64,000 nt of DNA from Patescibacteria group bacterium (GTDB lineage Bacteria; Patescibacteriota; Minisyncoccia; Ryanbacterales; GWA2-47-10b). Below the pieces are notes generated by a model. It saw nothing but the letters and a program-made list of their open reading frames with translations, searched no databases and was not told the origin of the DNA. The stretch is taken from assembly GCA_038065475.1 (NCBI GenBank), contig JBBTQY010000005.1:2793-66792 (forward strand), given 5' to 3'. The position numbers and the translations under genes were made by a program. Each line of letters starts with the position of its first letter. Position 1 is the first letter of the stretch. Below, one piece after another: positions 7,565 through 25,781 of the stretch.

Positions 7565-9763
7565 TTACCTGCGGGGTGGGCGGCCACCTCCACCGCGGGG
7601 GCGATCACCGTCTCGGCGCGGGCGGCGCTCTTCTTTCTCAGCTGTGCGTGCTTCAGTCTCCTCAGGAGTTTCTGTCATCGCACGGATAGAAAGATTGACG
7701 CGACCCATTTGATCAATGCCGGTGATTTTTGCTTCTACTTCGTCCCCTACATTCACTATATCGGTTACCTTGCCCACACGGAAGCCAGCAAGCTCTGAGA
7801 TATGTACGAGACCTTCTTGGCGAGGAGCATACTCAACCATGGCGCCAAATTCAAAGACACGTGATACTTTACCGCGAACAATTTCACCCGCAGTATATTC
7901 TTTGGTGATACCGGCAACGCGAGCCTGGGCTTTCTCAGCCGCTTCTTGGTTTGTGCCGGTGATGTAGACGATTCCTGTCTGTTCGATGTCGATGGTAGCG
8001 CCGGTCTCAGCGATGATTTCGTTGATAACCTTGCCGCCAGGACCGATGACGTCGCGGATTTTGTCTACGGGAATAGTCATTTTGATGACGCGAGGTGCGT
8101 GTGCAGGAAGAGTTGCGCGAGGTGCAGGCATGGCTTTGAGGATGACATCCATGATGCGCAATCGTGCATCGAGCGCGTCAGCGAGTGCATCACGCAAGAT
8201 TTGGAGCGTTACTCCACCTACTTTGACATCCATCTGTACGGCGGTTACACCCTCAGAGGTTCCGGCTGCTTTAAAGTCCATATCACCATGATGGTCTTCA
8301 GGTCCTTGAATATCGGTAAGAACTTTATACGTATTTTCGTCCTTCATCATGAGGCCCATGGCGATACCGCTGACGGGGCGTCGGATGGGAACTCCCGCAT
8401 CCATAAGTGCGAGGATTGATGCACAAACCGAACCCATCGATGATGAACCATTTGATGAGAGTGTTTCTGATACAAGGCGTACGGTGTAGGGAAACTCTTC
8501 TTTGGGAGGAATGACCGCCTCAAGTGCTTTTTCTGCGAGTGCACCATGGCCAATCTCACGTCGTCCTGGAGAGCCCATGCGGCCTGTCTCACCTACGGAA
8601 AACGGCGGGAAGTTGTAGTGATGCATGAAGTGCTTCTTGGTGCGTACATCCATACCTTCGATCAAGAGTTCGTCGCCAGGTGCGCCCAAGGTTACTACTG
8701 ACAAGATGTGTGTATCACCGCGGAAGAAAAGACCTGAGCCGTGGGTACGTGCGAGAAGTCCGGTTGATGCAAAAAGTGAGCGCAATTCTTTCATGCCTCG
8801 GCCGTCGGGGCGGCGATCTTTTTCGATCGCGTTTGTGTGTACGATATCATTGATAGCTTCCTCGTACATATCCGATGCGGTTCCTTTTGAGAGAGTTGGA
8901 AACTGTTCTTTGGTGGCAGTCATCCATTCAGTTTTTAAATCACCAAGCGTGTGACTGCGATGAATCTTATCAGGCATAAAGAGCGCGTCTTCCAAGCGCG
9001 GCATAAAATGCTTTTTCAAAAGTTTCTCAGCCTCTTCGGGGGCTTCTTCGATTTTTGGTGCAAATTTTTTCTTAGAAATTTTTGAGAAAATTTCACTCTG
9101 GAATTCGTTGAGTTCGTTAATGTGTTTGAGCGCAAGCTCTATCGCTTTGGCAAATTCTTCTTCGGGCATTTCTTTTGCTTTGCCCTCCAACATGTTTACT
9201 TTGCCGTCACATCCAGACACCACAAGATCAAGTACATGTGCTGCGCGTTCAGTGTCAGTTGGGTTGATGATAAATGAGCCGTCAGTCTTGCCTACGCGCA
9301 CTGAGCTTACAGGCCCTGCCCACGGGATATCAGAGGTGCCAAGTGCCAGGGACGCAGCCAAAACGGCCAAAATATCGGGACTATTTTCTTCGTCGAGTGA
9401 AAGGGTCGAGGTAACTACCTGTACATCATGACGAATGCGATGATCAAAAAGTGGGCGGATGGTGCGATCGATAAGGCGACCGATCAAGATCGCTTCCTCG
9501 GACGGACGTCCTTCGCGGCGCATAAAGCGTGAACCCAAAATGCGGCCTGCCGCATAATACTTTTCCTCGTAATCGACAGTGAGGGGAAAATATTCAACCG
9601 TTTCGCGTGCGTTGTGCGACATGACGGCGGTGGCAAATACCGTAGTACCGCCAACGGTTACTATCACCGAGCCATTGGCTTGGGATGCGATATTGTTAAA
9701 CTCGACAGTTATGGTTTTGCCAGCGATGTCGCGTGTGAAGATTTGTTTTTCAAGAGTTGTCAT
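7565..9763 (-). CDS. pnp: polyribonucleotide nucleotidyltransferase (PNPase)
   Basis: 732 aa with two RNase PH-like domains, KH and S1 (GEIVRGKVSRVFEFGAMVEY...), and an Arg/Gly-rich C-terminal tail RPRRDGDRPRGGGGRPPRR. Confidence 0.9.
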   Translation of the reverse strand: MTTLEKQIFTRDIAGKTITVEFNNIASQANGSVIVTVGGTTVFATAVMSHNARETVEYFPLTVDYEEKYYAAGRILGSRFMRREGRPSEEAILIGRLIDRTIRPLFDHRIRHDVQVVTSTLSLDEENSPDILAVLAASLALGTSDIPWAGPVSSVRVGKTDGSFIINPTDTERAAHVLDLVVSGCDGKVNMLEGKAKEMPEEEFAKAIELALKHINELNEFQSEIFSKISKKKFAPKIEEAPEEAEKLLKKHFMPRLEDALFMPDKIHRSHTLGDLKTEWMTATKEQFPTLSKGTASDMYEEAINDIVHTNAIEKDRRPDGRGMKELRSLFASTGLLARTHGSGLFFRGDTHILSVVTLGAPGDELLIEGMDVRTKKHFMHHYNFPPFSVGETGRMGSPGRREIGHGALAEKALEAVIPPKEEFPYTVRLVSETLSSNGSSSMGSVCASILALMDAGVPIRRPVSGIAMGLMMKDENTYKVLTDIQGPEDHHGDMDFKAAGTSEGVTAVQMDVKVGGVTLQILRDALADALDARLRIMDVILKAMPAPRATLPAHAPRVIKMTIPVDKIRDVIGPGGKVINEIIAETGATIDIEQTGIVYITGTNQEAAEKAQARVAGITKEYTAGEIVRGKVSRVFEFGAMVEYAPRQEGLVHISELAGFRVGKVTDIVNVGDEVEAKITGIDQMGRVNLSIRAMTETPEETEARTAEKEERRPRRDGDRPRGGGGRPPRR

Positions 9764-10292
9764 TTTCGTTTGTTGTAGATCGTTGTTTTCTAATTCTCAT
9801 AATATATTTATTTTCCGCGCCGAGGTCGATAAACTCGTCAGCTGATTCTTTAAGTTTGAGTGATGTGCTGCGGCCAAATGACATTACTTCAACGCGGCGG
9901 CCGTTGTTTTTCAAATATTCAACAAGTGGTACAAAATCGCCGTCACCCGAGCAGATAACAATCGTATCTACGGTGTTTGCGGTACGCACAGCGTCGATCG
10001 CGAGACCCACATCCCAATCAGCTTTTTTGGCGCCGCCATAAAATTCTTGGAGTTCTTTGGCGCGTGTTTCAATGCCGAGGGTGACAAGTGCATCAAAAAA
10101 TCCTTTTTCTTCACCGGTCTTGGTGCTGATGACGTATCCAAATGCACGGATGAGCTGGCGGCTTGCAACAGCAGTTTTCAAAACTTCTTTAAAGTTTACT
10201 CGTGCGCCGAAAAGAGAGCGCGCTGAATGATACAAATTTTGCGCGTCGATGAAAACAGCGACGCGCTGATCTTTATGCTTTCTCAAGTCCAT
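9750..10292 (-). CDS. NYN-domain (LabA-like, PIN-related) protein
   Basis: VAVFIDAQNLYHSARSLFG ... TIVICSGDGDFVPLVEYL, the typical NYN/LabA signature. Overlaps the pnp start by 14 nt. Confidence 0.75.
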   Translation of the reverse strand: MDLRKHKDQRVAVFIDAQNLYHSARSLFGARVNFKEVLKTAVASRQLIRAFGYVISTKTGEEKGFFDALVTLGIETRAKELQEFYGGAKKADWDVGLAIDAVRTANTVDTIVICSGDGDFVPLVEYLKNNGRRVEVMSFGRSTSLKLKESADEFIDLGAENKYIMRIRKQRSTTNENDNS

Positions 10293-10594
10293 TATTTTTT
10301 GATGCCGAAGTGTCGTTGGAGCTCCAAAAGCTTTTTCGAATCACCTTTGGCGAGATACTCGAGCAGCGACTTGCGCTTTGCGACCATTTTCAAAAGACCG
10401 CGGCGAGAGTGGTTGTCTTTGCGGTATTTTTTAAGATGATCGGCGAGTCGATCGATTTGCGCACACAAAAGGCCGATCTGAACTTCCGAAGAGCCCGTAT
10501 CCGTCTCATGGACGCGGTGCTTTTCAATAAGTTTTGTTTTCTTCACTGTTGTCAGCATGGAAAACATTCTAACAAACCTTTGGTCTTTTGACAA
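10292..10594 (-). CDS. rpsO: 30S ribosomal protein S15
   Basis: TGSSEVQIGLLCAQIDRLADHLKKYRKDNHSRRGLLKMVAKRKSLLEYLAK. The N-terminal extension suggests the true start may be the internal Met at ~10567. Confidence 0.9.
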   Translation of the reverse strand: MSKDQRFVRMFSMLTTVKKTKLIEKHRVHETDTGSSEVQIGLLCAQIDRLADHLKKYRKDNHSRRGLLKMVAKRKSLLEYLAKGDSKKLLELQRHFGIKK

Positions 10595-10842: not shown

Positions 10843-11730
10843 GTGCGACCCATGACGATTGAAAAAATAACACGCGAATTTTTGGAAGATTTGGAGCTCG
10901 AGCGCGGGCGTTCACCAAAAACGATAGAAAACTATGATCACTACCTCAAGCGTTTTTTTATGCACGCCAAAGTTTCCAACCCCGCGCATATTTCTGACGA
11001 ATTAGTTAGATCATATCGTCTCGCACTCAACCGCACAGGACTTTCTCCTCGCACGCGCAATTATCATCTCATCGCGTTGCGTATGTTTTTAAAATATTTA
11101 GCCAAGCGCGATATCAAATCACTCGCACCCGAACGTGTGGAGTTAGCGAAACTCGGCGATCGAGACATCGATATACCGCATGAAGGAGACTTAGATCGAT
11201 TACTGGGTGCGCCAAAAACTGATGCCCTGCAAGGACTTCGCGACCGCGCGATCTTAGAACTTTTATTTTCAACTGGACTTCGTGTATCAGAACTCTGCGC
11301 GCTCAATCGCGACTCACTTGATCTGGGGCGTGATGAATTTTCCGTGCGCGGCAAGGGTTCAAAAATTCGTATCGTGTTTCTTTCAAAGGATGCCAAAGAT
11401 GCAATCCGTGCGTATCTTGCAAAACGCGGCGATATGTCAGATGCGCTTTTTGCAGGCACGCAAAAGAAAAATCCGGCGCGACTCACCTCGCGTCAGATTG
11501 AACGTCTTGTTAAACGCTACGCGATTGGCGCGGGCATTCCAGGAAAGGTGACACCCCATACATTGCGACATTTGTTTGCGACTGATCTTTTGCTCAATGG
11601 TGCTGATATCAGATCAGTACAGGCAATGCTTGGTCATTCATCGATCACGACGACGCAAATCTATACACACATGACCGACAGACAACTTCGCGAAGTACAT
11701 AAAGCTTTTCACGGGAAGCGCAGAAAATAA
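10843..11730 (+). CDS. tyrosine site-specific recombinase, XerC/XerD-like
   Basis: HTLRHLFATDLLLNGADIRSVQAMLGHSSITTTQIYTHM (R-H-R-Y catalytic region). N-terminal SAM-like core-binding domain (KTIENYDHYLKRFF). 295 aa. Confidence 0.85.
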   Translation: MRPMTIEKITREFLEDLELERGRSPKTIENYDHYLKRFFMHAKVSNPAHISDELVRSYRLALNRTGLSPRTRNYHLIALRMFLKYLAKRDIKSLAPERVELAKLGDRDIDIPHEGDLDRLLGAPKTDALQGLRDRAILELLFSTGLRVSELCALNRDSLDLGRDEFSVRGKGSKIRIVFLSKDAKDAIRAYLAKRGDMSDALFAGTQKKNPARLTSRQIERLVKRYAIGAGIPGKVTPHTLRHLFATDLLLNGADIRSVQAMLGHSSITTTQIYTHMTDRQLREVHKAFHGKRRK

Positions 11731-11762
11731 TTTTTAAAAAATATTTGAGTATAAAAACGTAT

Positions 11763-12237
11763 GGCGGGGAGCTCTGGTGAGCTCCCCGCCGTGCCTTCAT
11801 CGACGGATCTCTAGGATCTCTCCTCCTCTACGTCTGAGGACCTTCTTCGGCGCGTTCGTTTCTCTGGCAGGCGCTGTGTCTCTCCTCGGGCCGTCGAGTA
11901 CTCGGAAATGATCTCCGTCTTCGACGCCCCGTGCACAGTCCCGCGAGAAATCACTTGTAGCGGTAAGTGTCCAACCCATCTTCCCCCTCGTAGTGCTGGA
12001 TTCCCTCCGGAACCCTCTTTGAAGTGCCTTACCTTTCCCCGTGCCGTAGTGGGTACGAGACTTGCCTCTCCCCTTCACGATCGGTAGCTACTTCTTCCCT
12101 GAATTGCGGAACCCTCCCTTTGTTCCGACGTTTTTTGGGAAGTAGATCGCTACGTGCTCGCGCGAAGAGATGGCCGTTTCCTCGCCTCATGCACCCTCCT
12201 TGCGGGGTTCGCCAGCCCTGAGGGCCAGCTTGGTTTC
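11763..12237 (-). ncRNA. candidate large structured ncRNA of unknown class (GC-rich, purine-rich transcript)
   Basis: About 475 nt with no ORF longer than 93 aa on either strand, about 60% GC against a ~48% background. Strong strand asymmetry: plus is C/T-rich and minus is G/A-rich. Minus-strand promoter-like TTGCAA-16-TAGAAT (plus 12246-12273) and a minus-strand intrinsic terminator GGCGGGGAGCUC-ACCA-GAGCUCCCCGCC plus AUACGUUUUUAU (plus 11763-11790). Internal repeats GGGUUCCG (x2) and CACUACG...GGGG (x2). No match to RNase P, tmRNA or 6S consensus that I could recognise by eye. Confidence 0.3.
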
Positions 12238-12347
12238 TGTTTAGTATTCTATACCTGCCTTAAAATATTGCAACAAAGCTCAAAGTATGGTCTTTTGCGT
12301 AGTCAAGAATATGTTGAAAAATAAGGGTTTTTAGGTGCTTTCGATAC

Positions 12348-12376
12348 TTGACTTTTCTTCTATTATTTGGTATAAT
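12348..12376 (+). promoter_or_regulatory. sigma70-type consensus promoter for the three-gene operon
   Basis: TTGACT (12348-12353), 17-nt spacer, TATAAT (12371-12376). About 110-nt leader containing hairpin AAGCCC-CAAAA-GGGCTT (~12418-12437). Confidence 0.65.
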
Positions 12377-12492
12377 AGATGTAGAAATCAGTAACGACCG
12401 TTCATTGACTATGAACTCAGAAAAGCCCCAAAAGGGCTTGAAAATAAAGAAAAAAACGATAACAACGATGCGCAGATGCGCGCGGAGGAAGA

Positions 12493-13287
12493 ATGAGACA
12501 GGGAAACAGAGGCAATAGCCGTGGGCGGAGCAATCCACCCCAACTCACTGTGGATCTCAAAGTTGACTTCGAAAAAGTCGGCGATGAGGTTCATGTCACC
12601 CTTAGCGCCCTTGTTCATCAAGGGAAGGAGCTCGTATCAGGTACGAGCGTCCAGTTCTTCACCCGCGGTACGAAGGTCGGTTCACCCAAAGTGACCGATC
12701 CGCAGGGTCGTGCGAAAGCCGTCTATGCTTACTCCGGCGATTGCATTGCTGAAGTACAGATCGTGGACAAGGCAGTGTGCGATTCCGAACCTGTCCGCTT
12801 ACCCGACGAATTCAAGTCGAAGCGGGCGAAGCTCCCGAACCAGATCCATGTGAGCCCAGCAGGGCGTGGCCGAGTTTTTGTCTCGGTGGCAGTTCTCGCT
12901 CAGGACGATGCGCCTATCAATGGTGCGGCCGTCAATATCTTCGAGGCGGGAGAGTCGCGTGATCCGAAAGTGATCAAGCGAAGTATTCCACTCGAGACAT
13001 TGACGACCAATGAGCGCGGTGCGCTCGATCCGGTGCCGTACTTCGATGTAGCACTGATGCAGGGCAAGCGTCGCCTGTTCGTTCATGTGGCTGGCACGAA
13101 GCTCCAAGCTTTCGTGACCTGTCGCGCATCGAGCATTCGGCCGCCCAAGGCGCCCGCGGATCTCCCGCGGGTTGCCGCAGCTTTCAGGAGGAAACTCTTC
13201 GGTACGCGTTCGATTCGTGCGTTCTTGCACGGTATCCGTATGGGTGGCGAGGCTCTTCGTGAACAGAGAAAGGGAGGCTCAAAGTGA
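12493..13287 (+). CDS. hypothetical protein (Arg-rich N-terminus, probable beta-rich domain), GC-rich
   Basis: 264 aa, about 60% GC. RBS GGAGGA upstream. No recognisable motif. Stop overlaps the next start (ATGA). Confidence 0.55.
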   Translation: MRQGNRGNSRGRSNPPQLTVDLKVDFEKVGDEVHVTLSALVHQGKELVSGTSVQFFTRGTKVGSPKVTDPQGRAKAVYAYSGDCIAEVQIVDKAVCDSEPVRLPDEFKSKRAKLPNQIHVSPAGRGRVFVSVAVLAQDDAPINGAAVNIFEAGESRDPKVIKRSIPLETLTTNERGALDPVPYFDVALMQGKRRLFVHVAGTKLQAFVTCRASSIRPPKAPADLPRVAAAFRRKLFGTRSIRAFLHGIRMGGEALREQRKGGSK

Positions 13288-14465
13288 TTCGGATCAATCT
13301 CCTTGGCGGGAAGTTGTCTCCGGCTCATAGTGGGCCGCCTCAACCAAATCCTCTCCCCCGTGGAGAGGTGCGTTCAGTGCTTGAGCAAGGTGCCTTTCTG
13401 ATCTGCATCGCGGTCCTCTCTTTTCTGGGGGCTGTCGCTGCGATCGGTTGGTGTCTCAATTCGGTATACGTTGGGAATGGCGCGTCATGGCCTGCGATCA
13501 TTATCGCGGCCGCACTGCTGTTCTTGATGTACCGCGTCGTCGTCATCGCTGATAGGCGTTGGTGGGAGAGCAAGCGAGCAAAGGTACTTGCGGGTGCGGT
13601 CGAGGACGAAAGTCCCGAGCCGACTCTCCTCAAGCCTGAGGATCGGATATTCGATGAAGTACTCGCAGATGATGAATTGCCTCGGCGTTGGAGAAAAAAG
13701 AAGTATCCACGCTACAAGGTGTGGTGCCGAGCGAAGCGGATCCGCAAGATTCGCCGCAAGCAAAGTCTCAAGACGTGGTTTGCCAAGCAGAAGCAACGCT
13801 TCGTAAACCTCTGGGGCTGGGTAAAAGGCTCCTGGAAGAAGAAGCGGAAGAAGAGCAAGAAAAAGGAGACGCCGTCTCCCTTCCTTGCATGGTTCATGCA
13901 TCTGGGATTCACGCTCCGCGTGAGCAACAATGCACGAGCGACGCTGTTTCTACTCGTCTCCGCATTCTGGTTCTGCATCAACGTCGTCACGCTCATTGCG
14001 AGCTTCGTGTTCGCACCGAACAGGCTGACGGATACACAGGAGCAGAGCTACAACTACATGCTCCATGGTGTGCGAGCAACCGATCTCGAGATGTCATCAA
14101 CCCTCACCCAGGTTCTTACGTGGTGTTGGTCGATCGTCTCGTCTCTGTTCGTAAACCCCTGGTCATGGATTCTCTGGTTCTCCTTCGCACTCTTTAGCTT
14201 CGTCTACTTCGTAGTAGCACAGCGCGAAGAGTTCGCGGAGGTAATCGATAGTGCGCGTGAGACGGTCTCGCAGCGCGCCACAACCGACTTGCCCGACCAA
14301 CCGTCTGGGCAGCCGAGCGCTCATCCGCCGGCAGGAGCTGGTGGTGGAGCGCTCGGAAACTTCTTGAAGAATCGCGCGCGTTTCGCCGTAGAAGATCTTT
14401 CGTGGGATCTCATCACGAGGGGCTTCCAGAGAGGCATAGGCGCGCTGCGTAGAGGGGCAATATGA
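13284..14465 (+). CDS. hypothetical polytopic membrane protein with a highly basic loop
   Basis: 393 aa. N-terminal IRINLLGG (PilN-like N-terminus only). Four or more predicted TM helices. Lys/Arg-rich segment RRWRKKKYPRYKVWCRAKRIRKIRRKQ...SWKKKRKKSKKKE. Translationally coupled (ATGA) to both neighbours. Confidence 0.55.
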   Translation: MIRINLLGGKLSPAHSGPPQPNPLPRGEVRSVLEQGAFLICIAVLSFLGAVAAIGWCLNSVYVGNGASWPAIIIAAALLFLMYRVVVIADRRWWESKRAKVLAGAVEDESPEPTLLKPEDRIFDEVLADDELPRRWRKKKYPRYKVWCRAKRIRKIRRKQSLKTWFAKQKQRFVNLWGWVKGSWKKKRKKSKKKETPSPFLAWFMHLGFTLRVSNNARATLFLLVSAFWFCINVVTLIASFVFAPNRLTDTQEQSYNYMLHGVRATDLEMSSTLTQVLTWCWSIVSSLFVNPWSWILWFSFALFSFVYFVVAQREEFAEVIDSARETVSQRATTDLPDQPSGQPSAHPPAGAGGGALGNFLKNRARFAVEDLSWDLITRGFQRGIGALRRGAI

Positions 14466-15988
14466 CGATTTCGAATCGTGTTCTCTCTGGCCTCGGCGTT
14501 GCCGCGGCCCTACTTCTCTGGTTTTCCGGTCTCTTCTCGGCCTGGTTGCTTTGTCTGGCCGCGGCGGTTGTCATCATTGGCTTCCTTGCGGCGCAGCTGA
14601 CCCCGACGTTCACGCGTCCTATCCTCATCGCTACGGCAGTTATCATCGTCGTGGCGTTGGGGGTGGAGGCCTTTCGTACAAGCTTCTTCACGAACGAGGA
14701 CGACCGTTTTTCCTACACCGCACTCGGCAACTCGGAACTCGAGGCTGACATGGTGTGGGCGGAAGGGATCGATCCTCATGCTCGGGAGCTTCGCGGACGT
14801 CTTGCGACCAAGTGTCGAAATACGGAAACCGAAGTGACCGAGCAGATCGACAAGAGGATGCAGGCGATCAATGCAAAGAACTTTCTGCGTCCTGCGCAGG
14901 TCAAGCGCGTACGGCGCCAGATCACTCGCCTTCAGGAGTTTCGCGCACTGTGCCGTGAGGCTATCGTGCAGTCGGAGGCGCCAGAGGAAGTGACGCCGGC
15001 AGTCTCGGCATCAAGCGGTGCGAGTATCACGGGATGGATCCCGGCGTTCTCGTTCGCTTGGCCCAGCATGCTGGTGCTCACAGGTATCGTGTTTCTCGTG
15101 TGGTGGTTTCTGCCGCGTGGCAGTGCTACCGCGGGAATCACGAAGCTCGCCGGGTTCGCGCTACTCGTTTTATTGGTAGCGCAGGGCTGGCAGCACGTTC
15201 TTCCGGAGTATTGGAAGGATGCGCTTGCTCGCCGCGGGCTCACGACGAGCCTGCATGCGGTGACCGCGATCGATTCGCCCACAGCTCCCGCGCGAGACTA
15301 CATCCGCGATCGTTGTGAGGCGAGACTCCAAGAGAAGACGGAGGCGCTCAAGGTCACTTACCCGACGCTCTCGGATGAAGCGGCTCTCGAAGAGGCCGGC
15401 AAAGAGCTTGCCAAGATCGAGAGCTTCGGCTACGAGTGCGGTGCACTCGTAGCGCCGCGGGTCACGCCCCAGCTCGCTGAAAGCGTGCCGAGTCAGGCAA
15501 TCTTTCCGATCGCCGTCGCGGTCGGTCTGATATTGGTACTGCTCCTCGCCGCACTTTGGGGCAGGGGTAGTGCACTTGGCACCACCGTGTCGGCGATGCT
15601 CATCATCGCGGCCATGGGTGTCATCTTCTACTACGTCAGTATGAGAGTCAGCAGCCCCGAGATTGCACTACCCGAACTCAACATGGCGGAGTTCGAAGAG
15701 ACTGCCTTGAACGCTCCGCAATGGGGAATCGTATCGGTGACCTTCAGAATACCTCCTCATAAACATGTAGGAGAATTCCAAATCGGGCGTCTCAAGCTCA
15801 CGCTCAAAGACGCCAAGATCGGGGGTAAGAACTACAAGTTCATCGCTCAGGGGCCCGCTCCACGCAACGAGCAGCTCTACGCTGGCCCGTCGGCAAGTCT
15901 GCCATCAGGGACAGCTCGAATGTTCCTCACCAACGACGGCAACGAGCCGATGAAGGTCACTCTCCGTTTCCAGAAGCACACAGTCTGA
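14462..15988 (+). CDS. hypothetical polytopic membrane protein
   Basis: 508 aa, six or more hydrophobic helices, C-terminal soluble domain (LKLTLKDAKIGGKNYKFIAQGPAPRNEQLYAGPSASLPSGTARMFLTNDGNEPMKVTLRF). GC-rich. Confidence 0.55.
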   Translation: MTISNRVLSGLGVAAALLLWFSGLFSAWLLCLAAAVVIIGFLAAQLTPTFTRPILIATAVIIVVALGVEAFRTSFFTNEDDRFSYTALGNSELEADMVWAEGIDPHARELRGRLATKCRNTETEVTEQIDKRMQAINAKNFLRPAQVKRVRRQITRLQEFRALCREAIVQSEAPEEVTPAVSASSGASITGWIPAFSFAWPSMLVLTGIVFLVWWFLPRGSATAGITKLAGFALLVLLVAQGWQHVLPEYWKDALARRGLTTSLHAVTAIDSPTAPARDYIRDRCEARLQEKTEALKVTYPTLSDEAALEEAGKELAKIESFGYECGALVAPRVTPQLAESVPSQAIFPIAVAVGLILVLLLAALWGRGSALGTTVSAMLIIAAMGVIFYYVSMRVSSPEIALPELNMAEFEETALNAPQWGIVSVTFRIPPHKHVGEFQIGRLKLTLKDAKIGGKNYKFIAQGPAPRNEQLYAGPSASLPSGTARMFLTNDGNEPMKVTLRFQKHTV

Positions 15989-16048
15989 GTTCACAGAAAA
16001 ATATCGTCGCCCCTGCAGTATAGGGGCAAACCAAAAAACCGAGGCGTC

Positions 16049-16092
16049 GCATGAATCATCGTGCGGCGCCTCTTTCCTTTTTATGCGACCCT
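16049..16092 (+). terminator. operon terminator
   Basis: GAGGCGTCGCA...TGCGGCGCCTC hairpin followed by TTTCCTTTTTAT. Confidence 0.55.
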
Positions 16093-16143
16093 TTTCCCGT
16101 GCTACTATATATGGTATAAGAGTTAGGTAAATCAAGGGCACGA

Positions 16144-16215
16144 GTCCTCGTGGTGAAATGGATATCACGACTGGCTTCGAACCAGTTATTGGGGGTTCGA
16201 GTCCCTCCGAGGACA
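16144..16215 (+). tRNA. tRNA-Arg (anticodon TCG)
   Basis: Cloverleaf: acceptor GTCCTCG/CGAGGAC, D-arm GTGA-AATGGATA-TCAC, anticodon arm ACTGG-CTTCGAA-CCAGT, T-arm GGGGG-TTCGAGT-CCCTC. CCA not encoded. Confidence 0.8.
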
Positions 16216-16293
16216 CAGCTGAAAGCTGTTCTCATATAGGAGGGACGAGAACGGAGCAAAGGATTTTGCTCCGCGGGGTTTGCGAGAAGCAAA

Positions 16294-16315
16294 CGAGTCC
16301 CTCCGAGGACACAGC
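16294..16315 (+). repeat. 22-bp direct repeat of the tRNA-Arg 3' end (copy of 16198-16219)
   Basis: CGAGTCCCTCCGAGGACACAGC occurs at 16198-16219 (tRNA T-arm/acceptor plus 4 nt) and again at 16294-16315. Confidence 0.8.
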
Positions 16316-16339
16316 GATACTTTTTTATTTTTTTAATTT

Positions 16340-16412
16340 CCACTCGTAGCTCAGTTGGTAGAGCAGTCGCCTCTTAAGCGAACGGTCGTAGGTTCGATCC
16401 CTACCGAGTGGA
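16340..16412 (+). tRNA. tRNA-Lys (anticodon CTT)
   Basis: Acceptor CCACTCG/CGAGTGG, D-arm GCTC-AGTTGGTA-GAGC, anticodon loop CTCTTAA, T-arm GTAGG-TTCGATC-CCTAC. Preceded by a T-rich run and a TGGTATAAG-type extended -10 further upstream. Confidence 0.8.
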
Positions 16413-16512
16413 CAATAACCAAAGTTATTGTCCACGGCAGCTCCTCGCGCGATAGCGCGACGATATGAAAAGCTGCCGCAACAATAAGCCGGGGGCGTAG
16501 TTCTATATAAAT

Positions 16513-17970
16513 ATGTCAAAAATTCCAAAAGAAATAATCTCTATCATCCAAACTTTAGAGGGCGCCGGCTTCGAGGCGTTTGCAGTTGGCGGTTGCGTGC
16601 GCGATCTTCTCATCGAGCGCAAACCGAAAGATTGGGATGTCACCACGAGTGCGATACCCGAAGATATTTTGCGCTTGTTTCCTGATAGCAAATATGAAAA
16701 TGATTTTGGTACGGTGTGCGTATTTTCTCAAAATCCGTCTGAGGCATCGCTTGCGATGATTGAGGTGACCCCCTATCGTACCGAGGCACAGTACTCGGAC
16801 AAGCGCCACCCTGACCGCGTTGAGTTTGGTAAATCACTCGAAGAAGATTTGGCGCGGCGCGATTTTACCATCAATTCACTGGCACTTAATGTAAAAACTG
16901 ATGAGGTGATAGATTTATTTTCTGGCAAGCGCGATTTTCGTGAAGGGCTTATCCGTGCAGTTGGCAATGCCGAAGAACGCTTTTCAGAAGACGCGTTGCG
17001 CATCATGCGCGCATTGCGCTTGTCAGCCGAGCTTGGTTTTCAGATTGAAGACGCGACACTCGCCGCCATCAAAAAAACCGTAAAACTTTTACGTTTCATT
17101 GCCAAGGAACGTATTCGCGACGAGTTTTCAAAGATCATCCTCTCCCCCACTCCGCACGAAACGCTCGAGCTTATGCGCGCGTTGGGTATTTTAAAACTCG
17201 TGTTACCAGAGCTCGAAGAAGGTGTAGGCGTGGGGCAAAATAAGCATCATGTCTATACCGTGTGGGAGCATAATCTCTACGCGCTCAAATACGCGGCGTC
17301 CAAAGAATGGTCACTCGAAGTGCGTATGGCAGCCCTTCTTCATGATGTAGGTAAGCCACGCTCAAAGCGCGGTGATGGACCGGACTCTAGTTTTTATGGT
17401 CATGAAATAATTGGTGCCAAAATGACTACGACTATTTTGGGTCGTCTTAAATATTCAAAACAGTTTATCGACAAAGTATCAAAACTCGTGCGCTATCACC
17501 TCTTTTATTACAATGTCGATGAGGTTGGCGAAGCATCAGTACGCAGGCTCATACGCAAGGTAGGTCCCGAAGATATGGAAGACTTGATAAAAGTGCGCTT
17601 CTGCGACAGGATTGGTTCGGGAGTGCCCAAGGCTGAACCATATAAATTGCGTCATTTTCGTTTTGTTATCGAGAAGCTTTCACGCGATCCAATCTCGGTC
17701 AAAATGCTCAAAGTAAACGGCGGCGATATCATGAAGATTGCGAATCTCGAACCAAGCCCCAAAGTTGGCCAACTGCTCAATATCTTGCTTGAGGAAGTGC
17801 TTGATGACCCCAAGCGCAACACTAAAGATATTTTGCAGGCGCGTATAAAAGAGCTTGCGGGCATGACCGAGCGCCAGCTCAAGGCACTTGCTGATGGCGC
17901 CAAGAAAAAATCATCAGCACTCGAAGAAGAAGAAGTGACGAAAATAAAAGGAAAACACAGGGTGAAGTAA
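16513..17970 (+). CDS. cca: CCA-adding tRNA nucleotidyltransferase (PolyA polymerase/CCA family with HD domain)
   Basis: GGCVRDLLIERKPKDWDVTT head domain, RDFTINSLA, HD-domain motif HDVGKP. Consistent with seven of the eight tRNAs here lacking an encoded CCA. Confidence 0.85.
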   Translation: MSKIPKEIISIIQTLEGAGFEAFAVGGCVRDLLIERKPKDWDVTTSAIPEDILRLFPDSKYENDFGTVCVFSQNPSEASLAMIEVTPYRTEAQYSDKRHPDRVEFGKSLEEDLARRDFTINSLALNVKTDEVIDLFSGKRDFREGLIRAVGNAEERFSEDALRIMRALRLSAELGFQIEDATLAAIKKTVKLLRFIAKERIRDEFSKIILSPTPHETLELMRALGILKLVLPELEEGVGVGQNKHHVYTVWEHNLYALKYAASKEWSLEVRMAALLHDVGKPRSKRGDGPDSSFYGHEIIGAKMTTTILGRLKYSKQFIDKVSKLVRYHLFYYNVDEVGEASVRRLIRKVGPEDMEDLIKVRFCDRIGSGVPKAEPYKLRHFRFVIEKLSRDPISVKMLKVNGGDIMKIANLEPSPKVGQLLNILLEEVLDDPKRNTKDILQARIKELAGMTERQLKALADGAKKKSSALEEEEVTKIKGKHRVK

Positions 17971-17973
17971 AAA

Positions 17974-18044
17974 CGGAGCGTAGTATACCGGTAGTACGCG
18001 CCCTTCGGGAGGGCGTAGACTGGGTTCGATTCCCAGCGCTCCGA
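17974..18044 (+). tRNA. tRNA-Pro (anticodon CGG)
   Basis: Acceptor CGGAGCG/CGCTCCG, short 3-bp D-stem GTA-TACCGGTAG-TAC, anticodon arm CGCCC-TTCGGGA-GGGCG, T-arm CTGGG-TTCGATT-CCCAG. Starts 4 nt after the cca stop. Confidence 0.7.
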
Positions 18045-18117
18045 CATTTATATAAAATACCCCAGCACACGCGTGGGGCATTTTATATTTTTGTATTGAG
18101 TTATATACTGATGGCAC

Positions 18118-19229: not shown

Positions 19230-19300
19230 GGGCCTGTAGTTAAGTGGTATAACGGCGCATTCGCATTGCGCAAGCGGGAGTTCGATTCTCCCCAGGTCCA
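19230..19300 (+). tRNA. tRNA-Ala (anticodon CGC)
   Basis: Acceptor GGGCCTG/CAGGTCC with a G3-U70 wobble pair, an alanine identity element consistent with this call. D-arm GTTA-AGTGGTA-TAAC, anticodon arm GCGCA-TTCGCAT-TGCGC, T-arm GGGAG-TTCGATT-CTCCC. Confidence 0.75.
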
Positions 19301-19358
19301 CAAATATATAACTATAAAACCGCCCAGGGAGAGGTTTTATAGTTATTGCAGAATTTCC

Positions 19359-19688
19359 ATGAAGTTTTATAATTGTCATATGTCCATAGAAAACTCATCG
19401 AAACCTGAACTATCAGAAACTGGCTTGGCCGGAATTATAGCTTTTTCCAAAAGACCCGAAGAAGACATTAAAACTTTTATGGAAACGGCCATGTCGGCGA
19501 AAATTGAAGGAAGTGCGACTGAACAATCAAAAGCTATCCTGGAAGCGTCCGAACTAGAGAGATTCATAGCCCGTGACCAATTCGAGTCCGCAATTTCTGG
19601 CCTTGCTCGACGCTTAGAAGATGGAGACGATAAATCAGCGCTTGAATATTTGGTACGTCTAGGCTTGAACATAGTTGAGAATCACTAG
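19359..19688 (+). CDS. hypothetical small protein (AT-rich segment)
   Basis: ORF downstream of tRNA-Ala. The longer upstream extension overlaps the tRNA, so the start was placed at Met 19359. No motif. Confidence 0.35.
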   Translation: MKFYNCHMSIENSSKPELSETGLAGIIAFSKRPEEDIKTFMETAMSAKIEGSATEQSKAILEASELERFIARDQFESAISGLARRLEDGDDKSALEYLVRLGLNIVENH

Positions 19689-19961: not shown

Positions 19962-20046
19962 ATATGGTATTTCACGTGAAATATCGGACATTTCTGTGGA
20001 TATCTATTGGACATAGTGGATAAAAGACACGATTTAATGTCTTTTA

Positions 20047-20672: not shown

Positions 20673-20743
20673 CGGAGTGTAGTATACCGGTAGTACGTCT
20701 GCTTTGGGAGCAGATAGACTGGGTTCGATTCCCAGCACTCCGA
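20673..20743 (+). tRNA. tRNA-Pro (anticodon TGG)
   Basis: Same scaffold as the 17974 tRNA (CGGAGTG...TAGTATACCGGTAGTAC...CTGGGTTCGATTCCCAG CACTCCG). Anticodon arm TCTGC-TTTGGGA-GCAGA. Confidence 0.7.
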
Positions 20744-20773
20744 CAATTTGGTTTTAGCTGCTAGTATATATGT

Positions 20774-22228: not shown

Positions 22229-22418
22229 TGAAATAAGAAAAACACTCACTCGGCTTTCTAGAGAGGAGGTCTGCAGGATTACGCGAAGTCTTGTAAAAAG
22301 TCTGATTTTGTGCTATAGTTTCTCCGAACTTAGAACCTCGATAACATAAATTTCTAGTTGAAACACCCGCATCTAAAGCCGAAACTGCTTTTTGATGCCG
22401 AGATTAGGAGGAAGGGAA

Positions 22419-24077
22419 GTGAAGAGACTTTTAATTCTCTTGCTCGCACTTGCGAGCTTGAGCTTGCGACCGCCCGGGACGGCGGCGCAGAGTTCGATCA
22501 ACGTCCCGGACGTGACGGGCGACCAGCTCGTCATGTTCTACGACGCGCGCTCATCGCGCGTGCCGTTCATGACCATCTCGAACCCGGCGCTCGAGCGTGT
22601 CGTTCTGAGGGCTGACTTCTACAACATCGACCTCACTTTCGTCATCGCCTCCGAGACCATTGTTCTCGAAGGCGGTAGTAATGTCGTCATCGATCCGACC
22701 GGAGTCGATGGTGGCATCGTCAACGGCAACGCAGGTCTTGCGGTCATCACTCCCACGCGGAGCGAGACCGACATCCAACCGGTGGTACCTCCAGCGCCCC
22801 TCATGGGGAATTGGACCTTGGCGAATCTCGATCTCGCCTCTGCGTTCGGCGAGAACATCTTCGGGCGTCTCGCGGTGCGGCAATCGGGCGAGCGGGCGAG
22901 TGCATGGAGTACCGTCGATGGTGATGCGGTGCGCTACCAGCGCATCGATCCTCACGCCGTGGTCATCCCTGCGCACTACAATCCCCAAGACTTGGGTCCT
23001 GTGGAGTTCGATGGTAACCGCGTGGTCATTGCGGTCTTCCGTGACGTCTACGACGGCGGCTTTCGTCTCGCTCCGCAGTTCGAGCGATTCGAAGCTTCAT
23101 TCATCGAACGCTTCGGATACCAGGTGGCCAAGACCCAGATCAACGTCGATGGCGTGCTGATGAGCGATCTCGTTTCGCTCGCTGGTGCGCAGCTTCGTTC
23201 GTCTGGAAAGGTGTTCTTCCGTCGTCTCGACCGTGCAAGCGGCGGGAACGCATTCGGCGTCTTCAGTCAGTCGCTCGGCACATTCGGTGCCGGTGGCCGC
23301 ATGATCGCCGTGGAGAACGTGCCGGATTTTTCACAAGCTCCAGCGCCTACTGGGACGCCGACGCCGGAGCCTACTGATCGTCCGACTCCGCGTCCCACCC
23401 CTACCTTCACGCCTCGGCCTACGCCGAGCCCGACACCAATTCCGACTCGGACGCCACAACCTACGGCGACTCCGAAGAAAACTCCGGCACCGACCGCAAA
23501 ACCTACGCAGACCCCGCGGCCGACGGCAACACCGAAGCCGACGGTGACTGCAAAGCCAACGCCGAGTCCCACACGGACGCCGTCGCCTACGGCGATTCCG
23601 ACCAACACTCCGCGGCCTACGGAAACTCCGAGGCCGACGGTAACACCGATCAAGACTCCGACGCCTACTCCGACCAGGACACCCACTCCGTCGCCGAGTC
23701 CAACGCCTACAATGACTCCGACCCCAACGCCGTCTGCAACTCCAACGCAGACGCCAACTCCGACACCAACGCAGACTCCGTCGTGTATCGACAACGACAA
23801 CGACGAGTACTGTGCGGGAAGCGGCCCCAGCAAGGACTGCAATGACTCGAATGCATCGGTAAACCCCGGTGCGACCGAGCAATGCAACAACATCGACGAC
23901 AACTGCCGCAATGGTACTGACGAGGACTTCCCCGAGAAGGGAGGAGTGTGCTGGCGCCTCGTTGGCACTGCCTGCTGGCGTGGCGAGAAGCGCTGCGCGC
24001 AAGGAGGTGGCGGGGGAGGCAACACCATCCAGTGTCTGCCGCTCTCGATAGAGCCTGACTCAAACCAGTGCAACTAA
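22419..24077 (+). CDS. secreted protein: N-domain + Thr/Pro-rich linker + MopE-like Cys-rich (putative metal-binding) C-terminal domain
   Basis: Probable GTG start 8 nt after AGGAGG (22405-22410). Signal peptide [23 protein letters not shown]. About 140 aa of (T/P) repeats. C-terminus [49 protein letters not shown]...CWRGEKRC matches the DCDDxNxxxNPGAxExCNGxDDNC MopE-like motif. GC-rich (~62%). Confidence 0.7.
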
Positions 24078-24296
24078 AGAAACAATCATAGGAGGGCGAT
24101 CATCATCCTCCGAATCATGGCCCAGTACGCGTTCCACGCGCGCTGGGCTTTTTTAATACAATGACTTGCAAAAAAGCTGATTTTATGATATAGTTTTTCG
24201 GAACTTCAGGTCCTTGTTAATTCCTAGTTTTTGAGAAGAAAAAAATCGCACCCCAGAGATAAGGGTGCTCAACCATTCAACCGAAGGAGAGAAACC

Positions 24297-25781
24297 ATGA
24301 AGCGTTCGCTGTTTGGATTGCTGATCGTTCTCGCGCTGTTCATGCCCCTGCTGGCCTGTGCCAGCGACATGCCGCGTGAGCTCGATGACTACTGCGTCTT
24401 CGCCAACAAGAAGTTGGTGCTCGGCACCAACGCGGCCGTGCTCGATGGTAGCGCTGGCGTCAACAAGTCGAGTGCGCGTGCCTCGAAGGTCCTCATGACC
24501 ATGAGGCCGTACTCGATCGTCGATCCGGATTTCCCGACCGCCGCATCGAGCGTCAAGATGGCAACGTACGCGACAGTAGGGGAGTTGTTCCGCAACTTCC
24601 TGACTTTGTCGGGGCCTGTGAACATCGACGAGGAGTATAGTGGGACGTTCCCCGTGCTCACTCTGCCCGAGCTCCCGTTCTTCTTGCCGGAGGACGACCA
24701 CATCATCCTACAAGAAGGGACGAAGTGGCTCGGTCCCGGGCAGTACGGGTTTCTCGAGGTAGGACCTGGGGCCACCGTCATCCTGACGGGCGGCGAGTAC
24801 CACTTTCTGCAGACCTGGTTTCGCTCGGGCTCTCAGCTTTACTACGAGAGTCCAGTCGACGTTCGTGTCCAGGGAAAGTTCATGGGTGATGAAGGGATCG
24901 TGATGCGTCCGGCCCTTTGGGCTGATGTATTGCCTCACGAGGCAAGCTTCGCGATTGGTGGGCCGATGGTGACCTTCGGGCCACTCGGCTCTTACGAGGG
25001 GATGTTCTATGCTCCTCGCAGTACCGTTCGAGTTCAGAGGCAGACGACGATCACCGGCCAGTTGGTCGGCAACAAGATCCGATTTGCCGACAACGCACGG
25101 TGCGTCTGGGCTGCGGCGGAAATCACGACGACTCCAACCCCCACGCCAAGTCCAACACCAACCCCAACGAGGACTCCAAGTCCAACGCCAACGTTGACAC
25201 CGACAGCGACTCCGTCGCCAACACCGACGAAAACGCCGACCCCAACTCCGACTCGTACACCAACCCCGACCCCGTCGGCAACACCAACATCCGTTCCCAC
25301 GCTGTCGCCAACGCCAAATCCAACGGCGACCCCGACTCCTTTGCCGACGGCCACGCCAACGCCCACACCGACCAGGACGCCGACCCCCGCGCCGACGCAG
25401 ACGGCGACGCCAACCGCGATTCCCACCCCAACACCCTCGGTAGCGCCGACGGCAACTCCCACCCCGACTCCCGTGCAGTCACCCATCTGCGTCGACAACG
25501 ACAACGACGAGTACTGTTTAGGGCAAGGGCCGGGGAAGGATTGCAACGATGCGAACGCATCGGTGAACCCCGGCGTCGTCGAACAATGCAACAACATCGA
25601 CGACAACTGCATCAACGGCACCGATGAGGACTTTCCCGGCAAGGGTGCGGTGTGCTGGCGCCTCGTCGGCACTGCTTGCTGGCGCGGCGAGTCACGCTGT
25701 GCCCAGAGTGCTGGCGGGGGAGGCAACACCATCCAGTGCCTACCTCTGACGTCTGAGTCAGATTCTTCCAAATGCAACTAG
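24297..25781 (+). CDS. lipoprotein paralogue: different N-domain + Thr/Pro-rich linker + near-identical MopE-like Cys-rich C-terminal domain
   Basis: RBS AAGGAGA. Signal [21 protein letters not shown] with LLAC lipobox. C-terminal ~100 aa are about 85% identical to the 22419 protein ([41 protein letters not shown]...). Confidence 0.7.

Follow-up and report, generated by a model that had tools for sequence, protein, structure and literature searches.

A Probable Housekeeping Xer Gene, a Hypervariable Clade-Specific Module and a tRNA-Trailer Element in an Island-Like Arrangement in Ryanbacterales

Introduction

Replacement-type flexible islands include the O-antigen and surface-structure gene clusters found at fixed positions and the staphylococcal "oriC environ". 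The attC sites of integrons and the folded attP of the CTX phage are single-stranded hairpin substrates of Xer-family recombinases, while cis-mobilizable elements (CIMEs) are att-flanked remnants of integrative elements accreted in tandem. An island integrated at a tRNA gene regenerates its target and has the displaced 3' fragment of the tRNA gene at its distal end, a pattern mapped by Islander (PMC4383910). On the RNA side, tRNA-like RNAs processed by tRNA enzymes include mascRNA, the tRNA-like domain of the YrlA Y RNA and viral tRNA-like structures (PMC10870377). Here, we describe a locus that resembles several of these systems, in a 64,000-nucleotide stretch of the genome of a Patescibacteria group bacterium of the Ryanbacterales (contig JBBTQY010000005.1, positions 2,793 to 66,792; hereafter "the window"). 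The locus consists of a tyrosine recombinase gene (xer), a GC-rich block, and two tRNA genes separated by a repeat of a tRNA 3' end, with the following coordinates in the window.

10843 to 11730, plus strand: Xer-type tyrosine recombinase gene (Pfam, NCBIfam)
11744 to 16097, no strand assigned: hypervariable GC-rich segment, "the block" (blastn breakpoints against the related locus L001; GC content, GC content at third codon positions (GC3), tetranucleotides)
16144 to 16216, plus strand: tRNA-Arg(TCG), CCA not encoded (ARAGORN; Rfam tRNA model, 65.7 bits)
16220 to 16315, plus strand: tRNA-trailer element, 74 bp plus the second copy of a 22-nt repeat, 96 bp in total (repeat, fold, covariance model)
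16340 to 16413, plus strand: tRNA-Lys(CTT), 24 nt past the trailer element

The original prediction, made from the sequence of this stretch, took the recombinase, the block and the duplicated tRNA-Arg 3' end for an island-like arrangement, and all of these parts were found where it had placed them. As in tRNA-integrated islands and prophages, an integrase-type gene and a tRNA gene occur together with a segment of deviant composition and with an exact repeat of the tRNA 3' end that begins in the T loop. The locus differs from such islands in that the repeats span only 74 bp, the block lies 5' of the tRNA gene, xer is independent of the block, and all close relatives carry the block. We conclude, with a probability of about 0.7, that the arrangement is not an island mobilized by the recombinase and instead brings together a probably housekeeping Xer gene, a tRNA-trailer element and a hypervariable membrane module of five genes that is specific to the clade.

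Results

The tRNA repeat and the GC-rich block

The 3' end of tRNA-Arg is duplicated in an exact 22-nt direct repeat, CGAGTCCCTCCGAGGACACAGC, at 16198–16219 and 16294–16315. The pair encloses the 74 bp to the right of tRNA-Arg and leaves the block outside. No third copy of the 22-mer was found in the window, including the region at 11.7–12.5 kb. The tRNA gene has its 3' end on the side facing away from the block, the wrong orientation for the block to have been integrated there, as the original prediction had itself cautioned.

Homology to the related locus L001 (related loci are designated by L numbers) ended at 11743, 13 nt past the xer stop codon, and restarted at 16098, 46 nt before tRNA-Arg. 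The flanks of L001 shared 76–82% nucleotide identity with the window, and no blastn match was obtained within the intervening 4354 bp; the coding part of the block gave no blastn match between the window and L001, L002, L004 or L005. The block encodes three larger proteins in one orientation.

12493 to 13287, plus strand: B1, 264 aa, with an Arg/Gly/Asn-rich N-terminus followed by two predicted beta-sandwich domains and no transmembrane segment
13284 to 14465, plus strand: B2, 393 aa, predicted to cross the membrane with 4 helices, with a Lys-rich loop and, towards its C-terminus, a conserved segment (REEFAE..DLPDQPSG..)
14462 to 15988, plus strand: B3, 508 aa, whose 6 predicted transmembrane helices form three hairpins and whose C-terminal beta domain is variable

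Genes amounting to 2.5–4.4 kb lay between xer and tRNA-Arg in L001, L002, L004/L089/L090, L005, L084–L088 and L092. The L001 interval contains three co-oriented genes (261, 189 and 350 aa) of the same architecture, which was also seen in L084 (the context of P0002), L085, L086, L087, L092 and L004/L089/L090. Profile iteration joined the B1, B2 and B3 families over the window, L084–L087, L001, L092 and L004/L090, and located them at no other place than this interval in 164 loci. Every Ryanbacteria-clade relative examined (70–96% Xer identity) has a module in the xer–tRNA-Arg interval, and its absence was observed only at 63% Xer identity or less. The original prediction had named a block in the same context with similar GC in related genomes as the outcome that would speak against an island, and this is what was found; its reading that the recombinase had integrated an element at the tRNA gene is thus not supported.

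The block proteins have diverged rapidly. Xer and Cca (the CCA-adding enzyme encoded to the right of the tRNA genes) are 92–97% identical among the window, L084, L085 and L086, versus 18–63% for the block proteins. B1, B2 and the N-terminus of B3 are nearest to L084 (58–63%; 61% between the B3 N-terminus and P0002), while the C-terminal domain of B3 matches L001 only (40%) and that of L084 matches L085 (56%). An exhaustive HMMER search of 1.84 billion representative proteins returned four matches for B3, all from this clade, and likewise four for B1. B1 and the B2 membrane module form a single fusion in L085 and L092, suggesting that the block proteins work jointly. The architecture, promoters and leader are kept while the proteins are fast-diverging mosaics, which points to recombinational exchange among lineages together with diversifying or relaxed selection. 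As judged from these comparisons, the block appears to be a vertically inherited, Ryanbacteria-specific five-gene module and not a recent import. An extra partial duplicate of the B2-like gene (119 aa) was also observed after B3 in L001 (7297–7656), the nearest relative in GTDB, providing more evidence of local rearrangement in the module.

The composition of the block deviates clearly from its surroundings. The GC content was 0.55–0.62 in all 500-nt segments of 12501–16000 and about 0.45–0.51 in the flanks, a difference of 10–12 points that agrees with the roughly 12 points originally predicted. The GC3 of the block genes was 0.60–0.69, compared with 0.47 ± 0.10 in the remaining 55 open reading frames (ORFs) of the window, and the compositional deviation thus goes beyond amino-acid usage. 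The codon-usage and tetranucleotide checks proposed with the original prediction were positive, the tetranucleotide deviation of 12001–16000 (z = 2.75) ranking third among overlapping 4-kb segments, where only the top two, covering 22–27 kb, exceeded it. The excess of block GC3 over flank GC3 was +0.13 to +0.24 in 10 of 10 lineages.

A second block, richer still in GC, was observed at 22392–25781 (and 26039–28225), with a GC content of 0.60–0.64, a GC3 of about 0.7 and a tetranucleotide z of 3.5. It encodes two paralogous proteins of about 520–560 aa with a MopE-type metal-binding motif and weak phrog_15511 matches, followed by a multi-Ig-domain protein. The proteins of the 22.4–25.8 kb region are poorly conserved and probably exported, and this genome may contain GC-rich ORFans of this sort, with products that are probably exported, as a general class.

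The recombinase and its gene neighborhood

The 295-aa ORF at 10843–11730 encodes a tyrosine recombinase, with Pfam matches to Phage_integrase (1.3e-42) and, in an N-terminal SAM-like domain, to Phage_int_SAM_1 (5e-15). The catalytic R-H-R-Y residues are legible in the translation (GLRVSEL, HTLRH and QIYTH). The called gene on the source contig starts 3 codons after the start of this ORF, for which reason the 295-aa sequence itself had no exact database entry. Full-length NCBIfam scores were nearly equal for TIGR02225 (XerD, 235.9 bits), TIGR02224 (XerC, 235.5) and NF040815 (XerA, 234.3); the score lies below the XerC and XerD equivalog cut-offs, and the archaeal XerA cut-off (220) is the only one passed. 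The integron-integrase model scored 126.8 bits against a cut-off of 265. No second tyrosine recombinase was found in the 64-kb window by a phmmer search against all its ORFs. GTDB species genomes yielded 298 relatives of the recombinase and metagenomes 406, the nearest being from Candidatus Ryanbacteria.

The genes surrounding xer are conserved on both sides.

7565 to 9763, minus strand: pnp (ORFs; gene calls of the source contig)
9750 to 10292, minus strand: NYN-domain gene (Pfam NYN)
10292 to 10594, minus strand: rpsO, completing a conserved left context (pnp-NYN-rpsO, 7565 to 10594) that points away from xer
16513 to 17970, plus strand: CCA-adding tRNA nucleotidyltransferase gene, cca (Pfam PolyA_pol, PolyA_pol_RNAbd and HD), the conserved right context

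Among 108 non-redundant related Paceibacteria loci with enough sequence upstream of xer, a divergent rpsO lay upstream within 5 kb in 93 and a NYN-domain gene in 94, usually together with pnp. In 52 of 66 loci, a cca gene followed xer at a distance of no more than 10 kb. This context is kept whether the interval downstream of xer measures 195 bp, as in L007, or 4.4 kb, which bears out the earlier caution that the recombinase looked like a housekeeping enzyme. The ancestral neighborhood, pnp-NYN-rpsO/xer ... tRNA-Arg ... cca, would then be common to Paceibacteria, and the recombinase is most likely the lineage's own Xer-type chromosome-maintenance enzyme in its ancestral position. It shares with the described Xer recombinases (XerC/XerD and the single systems XerA, XerS and XerH) the SAM-like core-binding domain, the catalytic domain and the R-H-R-Y residues, as well as a single-copy gene in a syntenic position conserved across the whole class. 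It differs from them in that xer lies in the window at an origin-like site, as judged by GC skew and gene orientation, and not at the terminus.

Several observations touch on this last point. The cumulative GC skew has its minimum at about 12–12.5 kb of the window, and the gene orientation flips from minus to plus at 10.6–10.8 kb, as at an origin. About 70 of the 89 perfect DnaA boxes (TTATCCACA) of the related loci lie within 4.5 kb past the xer stop codon. Two near-perfect boxes (TGTGGATAT and AGTGGATAA), 20 nt apart, were found in the window at 19995–20023, upstream of a UPF0102 gene. The Xer gene may thus adjoin oriC in Paceibacteria.

The tRNA-trailer element

The 96-bp element between the two tRNA genes is predicted to fold into a three-way junction (-47.1 kcal/mol, z = -6.6). 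Its outer helix (GUUCUC..GGAGGGAC / GUCCCUCC-GAGGAC), composed of an imperfect inverted copy of the tRNA 3' end and the repeat, reproduces the acceptor and T stems of tRNA-Arg, and two inner hairpins are located at 16253–16272 and 16278–16294. No promoter-like site was found between tRNA-Arg and tRNA-Lys, which in L001 are just 27 nt apart, and tRNA-Lys is probably co-transcribed with tRNA-Arg. The tRNA genes of this part of the window (16144–16413, 17974–18045, 19230–19301 and 20673–20744) do not encode CCA and have the cca gene among them; the order tRNA-Arg, tRNA-Lys, cca, tRNA-Pro is kept in the clade.

When the tRNA-Arg to tRNA-Lys region of eight lineages was aligned, the 96-bp insert was common to the window and L086. 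It was precisely missing from L001, L085 and L084, in which the sequence that is repeated in the window occurs once. L002, L088 and L005 have inserts built in the same way, with a repeat that follows the acceptor sequence of the respective lineage (GAGGAC, GAGCGC and GGGGC). The last 16 nt of the tRNA itself, with at most 2 mismatches, recurred within 600 nt downstream for 42 of the 299 tRNA genes of the related loci, compared with 2 of 299 for recurrence upstream and 1 of 299 for an internal 16-mer downstream. Some tRNA genes are followed by two or three tandem units, and the tandem arrays of L021, L100 and L117 contain identical units.

The copy number of the element also varies, three copies being present in L086 versus one in the window. 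Both tRNA-Pro genes of L086 are accompanied by a 79-nt-offset element (16871–16965 and 19446–19540) with Pro-specific arms, and the orthologous tRNA-Pro genes of the window (17974–18045 and 20673–20744) have none. Genomes with 92–97% identity in their housekeeping proteins thus carry different sets of elements. In the single genome of L103, the elements behind tRNA-Arg and tRNA-Pro (8755–8899 and 11452–11596) have tRNA-specific arms and an internal module identical at 128 of 130 positions. This identity stops exactly at the tRNA-derived arms, a pattern indicating that the module was recently transferred from one tRNA locus to the other or that the two underwent gene conversion. Decayed copies of the element exist as well.

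Longer versions of the element begin with a copy of the 5' acceptor strand, a hairpin with the conserved loop AACUGCUU, and the 5' strand of the T stem. They continue with a junction of two hairpins, which contain conserved purine-rich internal loops, and end with the 3' strands of the T and acceptor stems. An alignment of 18 sequences yielded a three-way junction with compensatory changes in 17 of 21 pairs, some of them in the two inner helices, which are unrelated to the tRNA sequence. The paired cells amounted to 87.6%, compared with 66% in shuffles (none of 500 reached the observed value) and 32–48% with slid partners, and the sense strand folded better in 29 of 36 units (p = 4e-6).

A covariance model was built on these 18 copies and used to scan 2.1 Mb with a cut-off of E < 0.003. 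It returned 48 copies, 47 of which are downstream of a same-strand tRNA gene (Arg-TCG, Pro-TGG, Gly-GCC, Gly-TCC or Tyr), at a distance of 6–84 nt, or 200–370 nt for later tandem units. The window contains one match, at 16240–16305 (35.3 bits, E = 3e-7). Rfam 15 returned nothing overlapping 16217–16339 at E <= 5 and nothing overlapping the larger copies in L021, L055, L100 and L117 at E <= 1, and a full-text literature search yielded no comparable element. The elements thus constitute an apparently previously undescribed family in Paceibacteria, a class of the Candidate Phyla Radiation (CPR).

Three other identities were considered for the element and set aside. A role as an intrinsic terminator was not supported, as T runs follow 11 of 45 copies, against a background of 31%, with no enrichment. 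The 16-mer AWTCGAAAGSCGGAGC was found at 43 loci on viral contigs, none of which fits the covariance model, indicating chance matches. A hammerhead-like junction was also examined by eye, and the junction strands do not fit.

Genes and signals within the block

In addition to B1–B3, the block contains two small, basic, arginine-rich ORFs on the minus strand, which complete the five genes, and a set of candidate expression signals.

11763 to 11790, minus strand: terminator-like hairpin and T run at the end of the small-ORF unit (12-bp stem with 10 GC pairs, tail ATACGTTTTT)
11797 to 11979, minus strand: sORF2, 60 aa, with conserved N-terminus (MGWNP../MGWT..) and Shine-Dalgarno sequence GAGGGGGAAG
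12029 to 12190, minus strand: sORF1, 53 aa, arginine-rich, net charge +8, with conserved AAGGAGG and ATG
12246 to 12273, minus strand: promoter-like site of the sORF1-sORF2 unit, TTGCAA-16-TAGAAT (TTGCAATATT...TATAGAAT, nearly invariant in alignment A4)
12348 to 12376, plus strand: predicted promoter of the B1-B2-B3 operon, TTGACT-17-TATAAT with extended TG (11 of 12 matches; conserved in five lineages)
12377 to 12492, plus strand: leader of about 115 nt with the palindrome GTTCATTGACTATGAAC (12400–12416) and the ribosome-binding site GGAGGA
16041 to 16072, plus strand: terminator-like hairpin at the end of the B operon (14-bp stem, tail TTTCCTTTTT)

Orthologues of sORF2 (63–71 aa, starting at the same aligned ATG) were found in L084, L085, L086, L087 and L001, and orthologues of sORF1 (55–66 aa, with the motif MRR..(I/V)..RAR..L..R..R(L/V/I)P) in five relatives. 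Alignment gaps within the small ORFs are multiples of three, and the hairpin at 11763–11790 is kept with compensatory changes in A4. Neither small ORF is among the gene calls of the source contig, and neither matches a known family. The ORF-free spacer at 11745–12245 had first been read as a large non-coding RNA on the minus strand, backed by a fold z of -4.7, the promoter and the terminator; this reading was ruled out by the two small ORFs, whose Shine-Dalgarno sequences and ATG codons are conserved over five relatives.

On the opposite strand, the leader aligns well at the nucleotide level over five lineages (A4 columns 1–200), and its conservation suggests a regulatory site, either an operator or a structured leader. 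B1 and B2, as well as B2 and B3, share 4-bp start/stop overlaps. B3 also has two helical, Cys-containing soluble regions. No family was found for B1–B3 in Pfam, PHROG, NCBIfam or PADLOC, and B3 had no match among PDB sequences or in a phage tblastn search. Foldseek returned for B1 only weak matches to the generic CarboxypepD_reg, Big_1 and transthyretin-like folds. The block was also considered as the target of a diversity-generating retroelement and rejected, since 10–19 kb contains neither a template/variable repeat pair nor a long direct repeat; no reverse transcriptase was found among the ORFs of the region.

Discussion

Origin of the block

What remains of the island-like arrangement is a variable hotspot with a deviant, mosaic module and a repeat that is the real footprint of a small insertion at the tRNA 3' end; integration of the block at the tRNA does not remain. 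The joint presence of a recombinase, a GC-rich block, a tRNA gene and a repeated tRNA 3' end would also be expected if the neighboring recombinase had recently inserted a genomic island at tRNA-Arg, using the 22-bp repeat as its att site. We regard such an origin as very improbable. What the repeats enclose is 74 bp on the 3' side of the tRNA gene, while the block lies on its 5' side and has no copy of the repeat at its left edge. Genomes that lack the block have the recombinase in its usual context, and in all relatives with 70–96% Xer identity the block is matched by one that is homologous or occupies the same position. A chimera of GC-rich foreign DNA and a CPR contig, formed during assembly or binning, would account for the abrupt change in composition. 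It is the least credible of the explanations considered here, as the identical xer–block junction is found in ENA (a 304-kb contig from Hainich groundwater), in NCBI (535 kb) and in two independent Logan assemblies, and the same architecture in about 10 other metagenome-assembled genomes and metagenomes. A more serious, though still unlikely, alternative is that the block was an ancient mobile element, virus- or plasmid-like or of the type of the integrative mobile elements exploiting Xer (IMEX), that was captured by a Ryanbacteria ancestor, lost its mobility and was then inherited vertically. Its position directly beside the Xer gene, the persisting GC3 and tetranucleotide deviation, and the self-contained make-up of the module with its own divergent promoters and terminators are consistent with such a capture, as are the occupation of the interval by other cargo, including a RAYT-like transposase, in L013 and L014, its emptiness in L007, and the Arg-rich N-termini and small basic proteins, which recall nucleic-acid-binding virion proteins. 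These points are countered by the absence from the block of any replication, packaging, integrase or ATPase gene, of PHROG or phage matches, and of flanking direct or dif-like repeats. In an IMEX test, no direct repeat of at least 14 nt joined the block borders and the distribution was not patchy. Moreover, every Ryanbacteria-clade relative examined has the block at the same site with the same gene order, the block GC3 tracks that of the host, and the predicted B1 folds are generic Ig-like domains and not capsid jelly rolls.

The reading of the locus as a housekeeping Xer gene beside a vertically inherited module also has points that weigh against it. The comparisons cover about 10 lineages of metagenome-assembled genomes. 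The housekeeping role of the recombinase is inferred from synteny and family membership, and no conserved dif-like motif was found in the 150 nt past the xer stop codon in the 133 loci inspected. The strong GC3 and tetranucleotide deviation of the block is a classical signature of foreign DNA. The correlation of block GC3 with flank GC3 (r = 0.90 over ten lineages) was calculated with the lineages treated as independent. The xer–tRNA-Arg interval is empty, at 195 bp, in the more distant L007, and in two Giovannonibacteria-like loci, it carries other genes of normal GC, namely a DUF559/Vsr-like endonuclease gene in L013 (10923–11303) and a RAYT/IS200-like Y1 transposase gene in L014 (10868–11539). 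Since distant Paceibacteria have an empty interval or other cargo, the block must have been gained or have arisen there. As for the proteins, the AlphaFold2 model of B1 is all-beta but of low confidence (pLDDT 49.9), that of B3 (pLDDT 48.9) is too poor for fold assignment, and the block proteins have neither a recognizable domain nor a signal peptide.

Taken together, the xer–tRNA-Arg interval is a long-term variable hotspot in which the Ryanbacteria module was gained or arose once. Because the block GC3 tracks the host and is not uniform, as it would be if derived from a common GC-rich donor, a local process is indicated; frequent recombination at the locus with GC-biased gene conversion would raise GC3 and would fit better than recent import. 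In its fixed position, conserved flanks, abrupt drop of identity (at 11743 and 16098), divergent mosaic versions and atypical composition, and in its location near an origin-like region, the locus resembles the replacement-type loci. It differs from them in encoding ORFan membrane proteins, at most putatively surface-exposed, without a recognizable biosynthetic or surface domain, and in having a GC content above, not below, that of the genome. Our guess, a tentative one, is that the module forms a membrane-anchored envelope complex at the host- or phage-facing interface of the episymbiotic cell.

Trailer element as RNA or mobile DNA

The trailer element may be either a processed RNA that mimics a tRNA end or an integrative element that lacks cargo and whose fold would be of use in recombination; either would be unusual. 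A role as RNA is suggested by its strict orientation, the lack of room for a promoter between the tRNA genes, the better folding of the sense strand and the conserved unpaired purines. The predicted helix resembles those of tRNA-like RNAs in that an acceptor stem is stacked on a T stem with a discriminator-base end, beside real tRNAs in what is probably one transcript. Unlike tRNA-like RNAs, the element has no D arm, anticodon arm or T loop, the last being replaced by the two-hairpin junction; its stems are copied from whichever tRNA is upstream, and it has no Rfam match.

The competing possibility, to which we give roughly one chance in three, is that the 96-bp insert is not a functional RNA and is instead a miniature integrative element without cargo, or its scar, moved in trans by a tyrosine recombinase. 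The hairpin arms would then form, in folded single-stranded DNA, a mimic of the T-stem/acceptor attachment site of the tRNA, in the manner of attC or the CTX attP. Mobility would explain why the presence of the insert varies between close relatives with precise, single-copy empty sites, why L086 has three copies and the window one, and why the arrays of L021, L100 and L117 contain identical units. The exact copying of the tRNA 3' end (0 mismatches in 16 nt) in most of the listed units, the L103 module shared at 128 of 130 nt behind two tRNA genes with differing arms, the decayed copies and the strand-biased folding, as in attC sites, point in the same direction. However, no dedicated integrase is nearby and the 16-mer matches on viral contigs are due to chance, while gene conversion between resident copies explains the common modules equally well. 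The window copy lies inside the tRNA-Arg/tRNA-Lys unit without room for a promoter and is probably transcribed, the internal loops have conserved unpaired purines (GGAG../..GAG), and G-U pair cells (21) outnumber A-C mismatch cells (13). Like attC and the CTX attP, the element has a structure conserved over sequence, with bulged imperfect inverted repeats and one better-folding strand, and its tandem arrays, like those of attC, have each element bounded by the same core sequence. It differs from attC in lacking an IntI-type integrase and a GTTRRRY core, in having arms that copy the adjacent tRNA stems, and in lying inside tRNA transcription units, where the conserved internal-loop purines suggest an RNA motif. 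CIMEs are similar in placing non-coding DNA between direct repeats of the attachment sequence at a tRNA 3' end and in their tandem accretion; at 80–270 nt, the elements are ten to a hundred times smaller, have a covarying conserved fold, and no parental integrative element was identified.

The elements are situated in tRNA transcription units and, from one close relative to another, have been gained, duplicated in tandem, allowed to decay, and lost. The fuller reading, in which previously undescribed trailer elements of 80–270 nt are co-transcribed with the tRNA and spread with re-matched arms, and the block is a hypervariable envelope module that is driven by recombination and situated beside the replication origin, has in our estimate even odds.

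Implications

The combination of a recombinase, a GC-rich block and a tRNA repeat invites annotation as an island, a tempting mis-annotation that is corrected here, as these parts probably form none. The Xer neighborhood recurs in many CPR genomes, and automated island finders are likely to err in the same way. The mosaic ORFan membrane locus at its fixed position is a candidate determinant of host or phage specificity in episymbionts with tiny genomes. As RNAs, the trailer elements would amount to a novel kind of tRNA mimicry, in organisms that have to add CCA to their tRNAs after transcription; as mobile DNA, they would be the smallest known tRNA-targeting integrative elements, with an attachment-site specificity that is re-templated.

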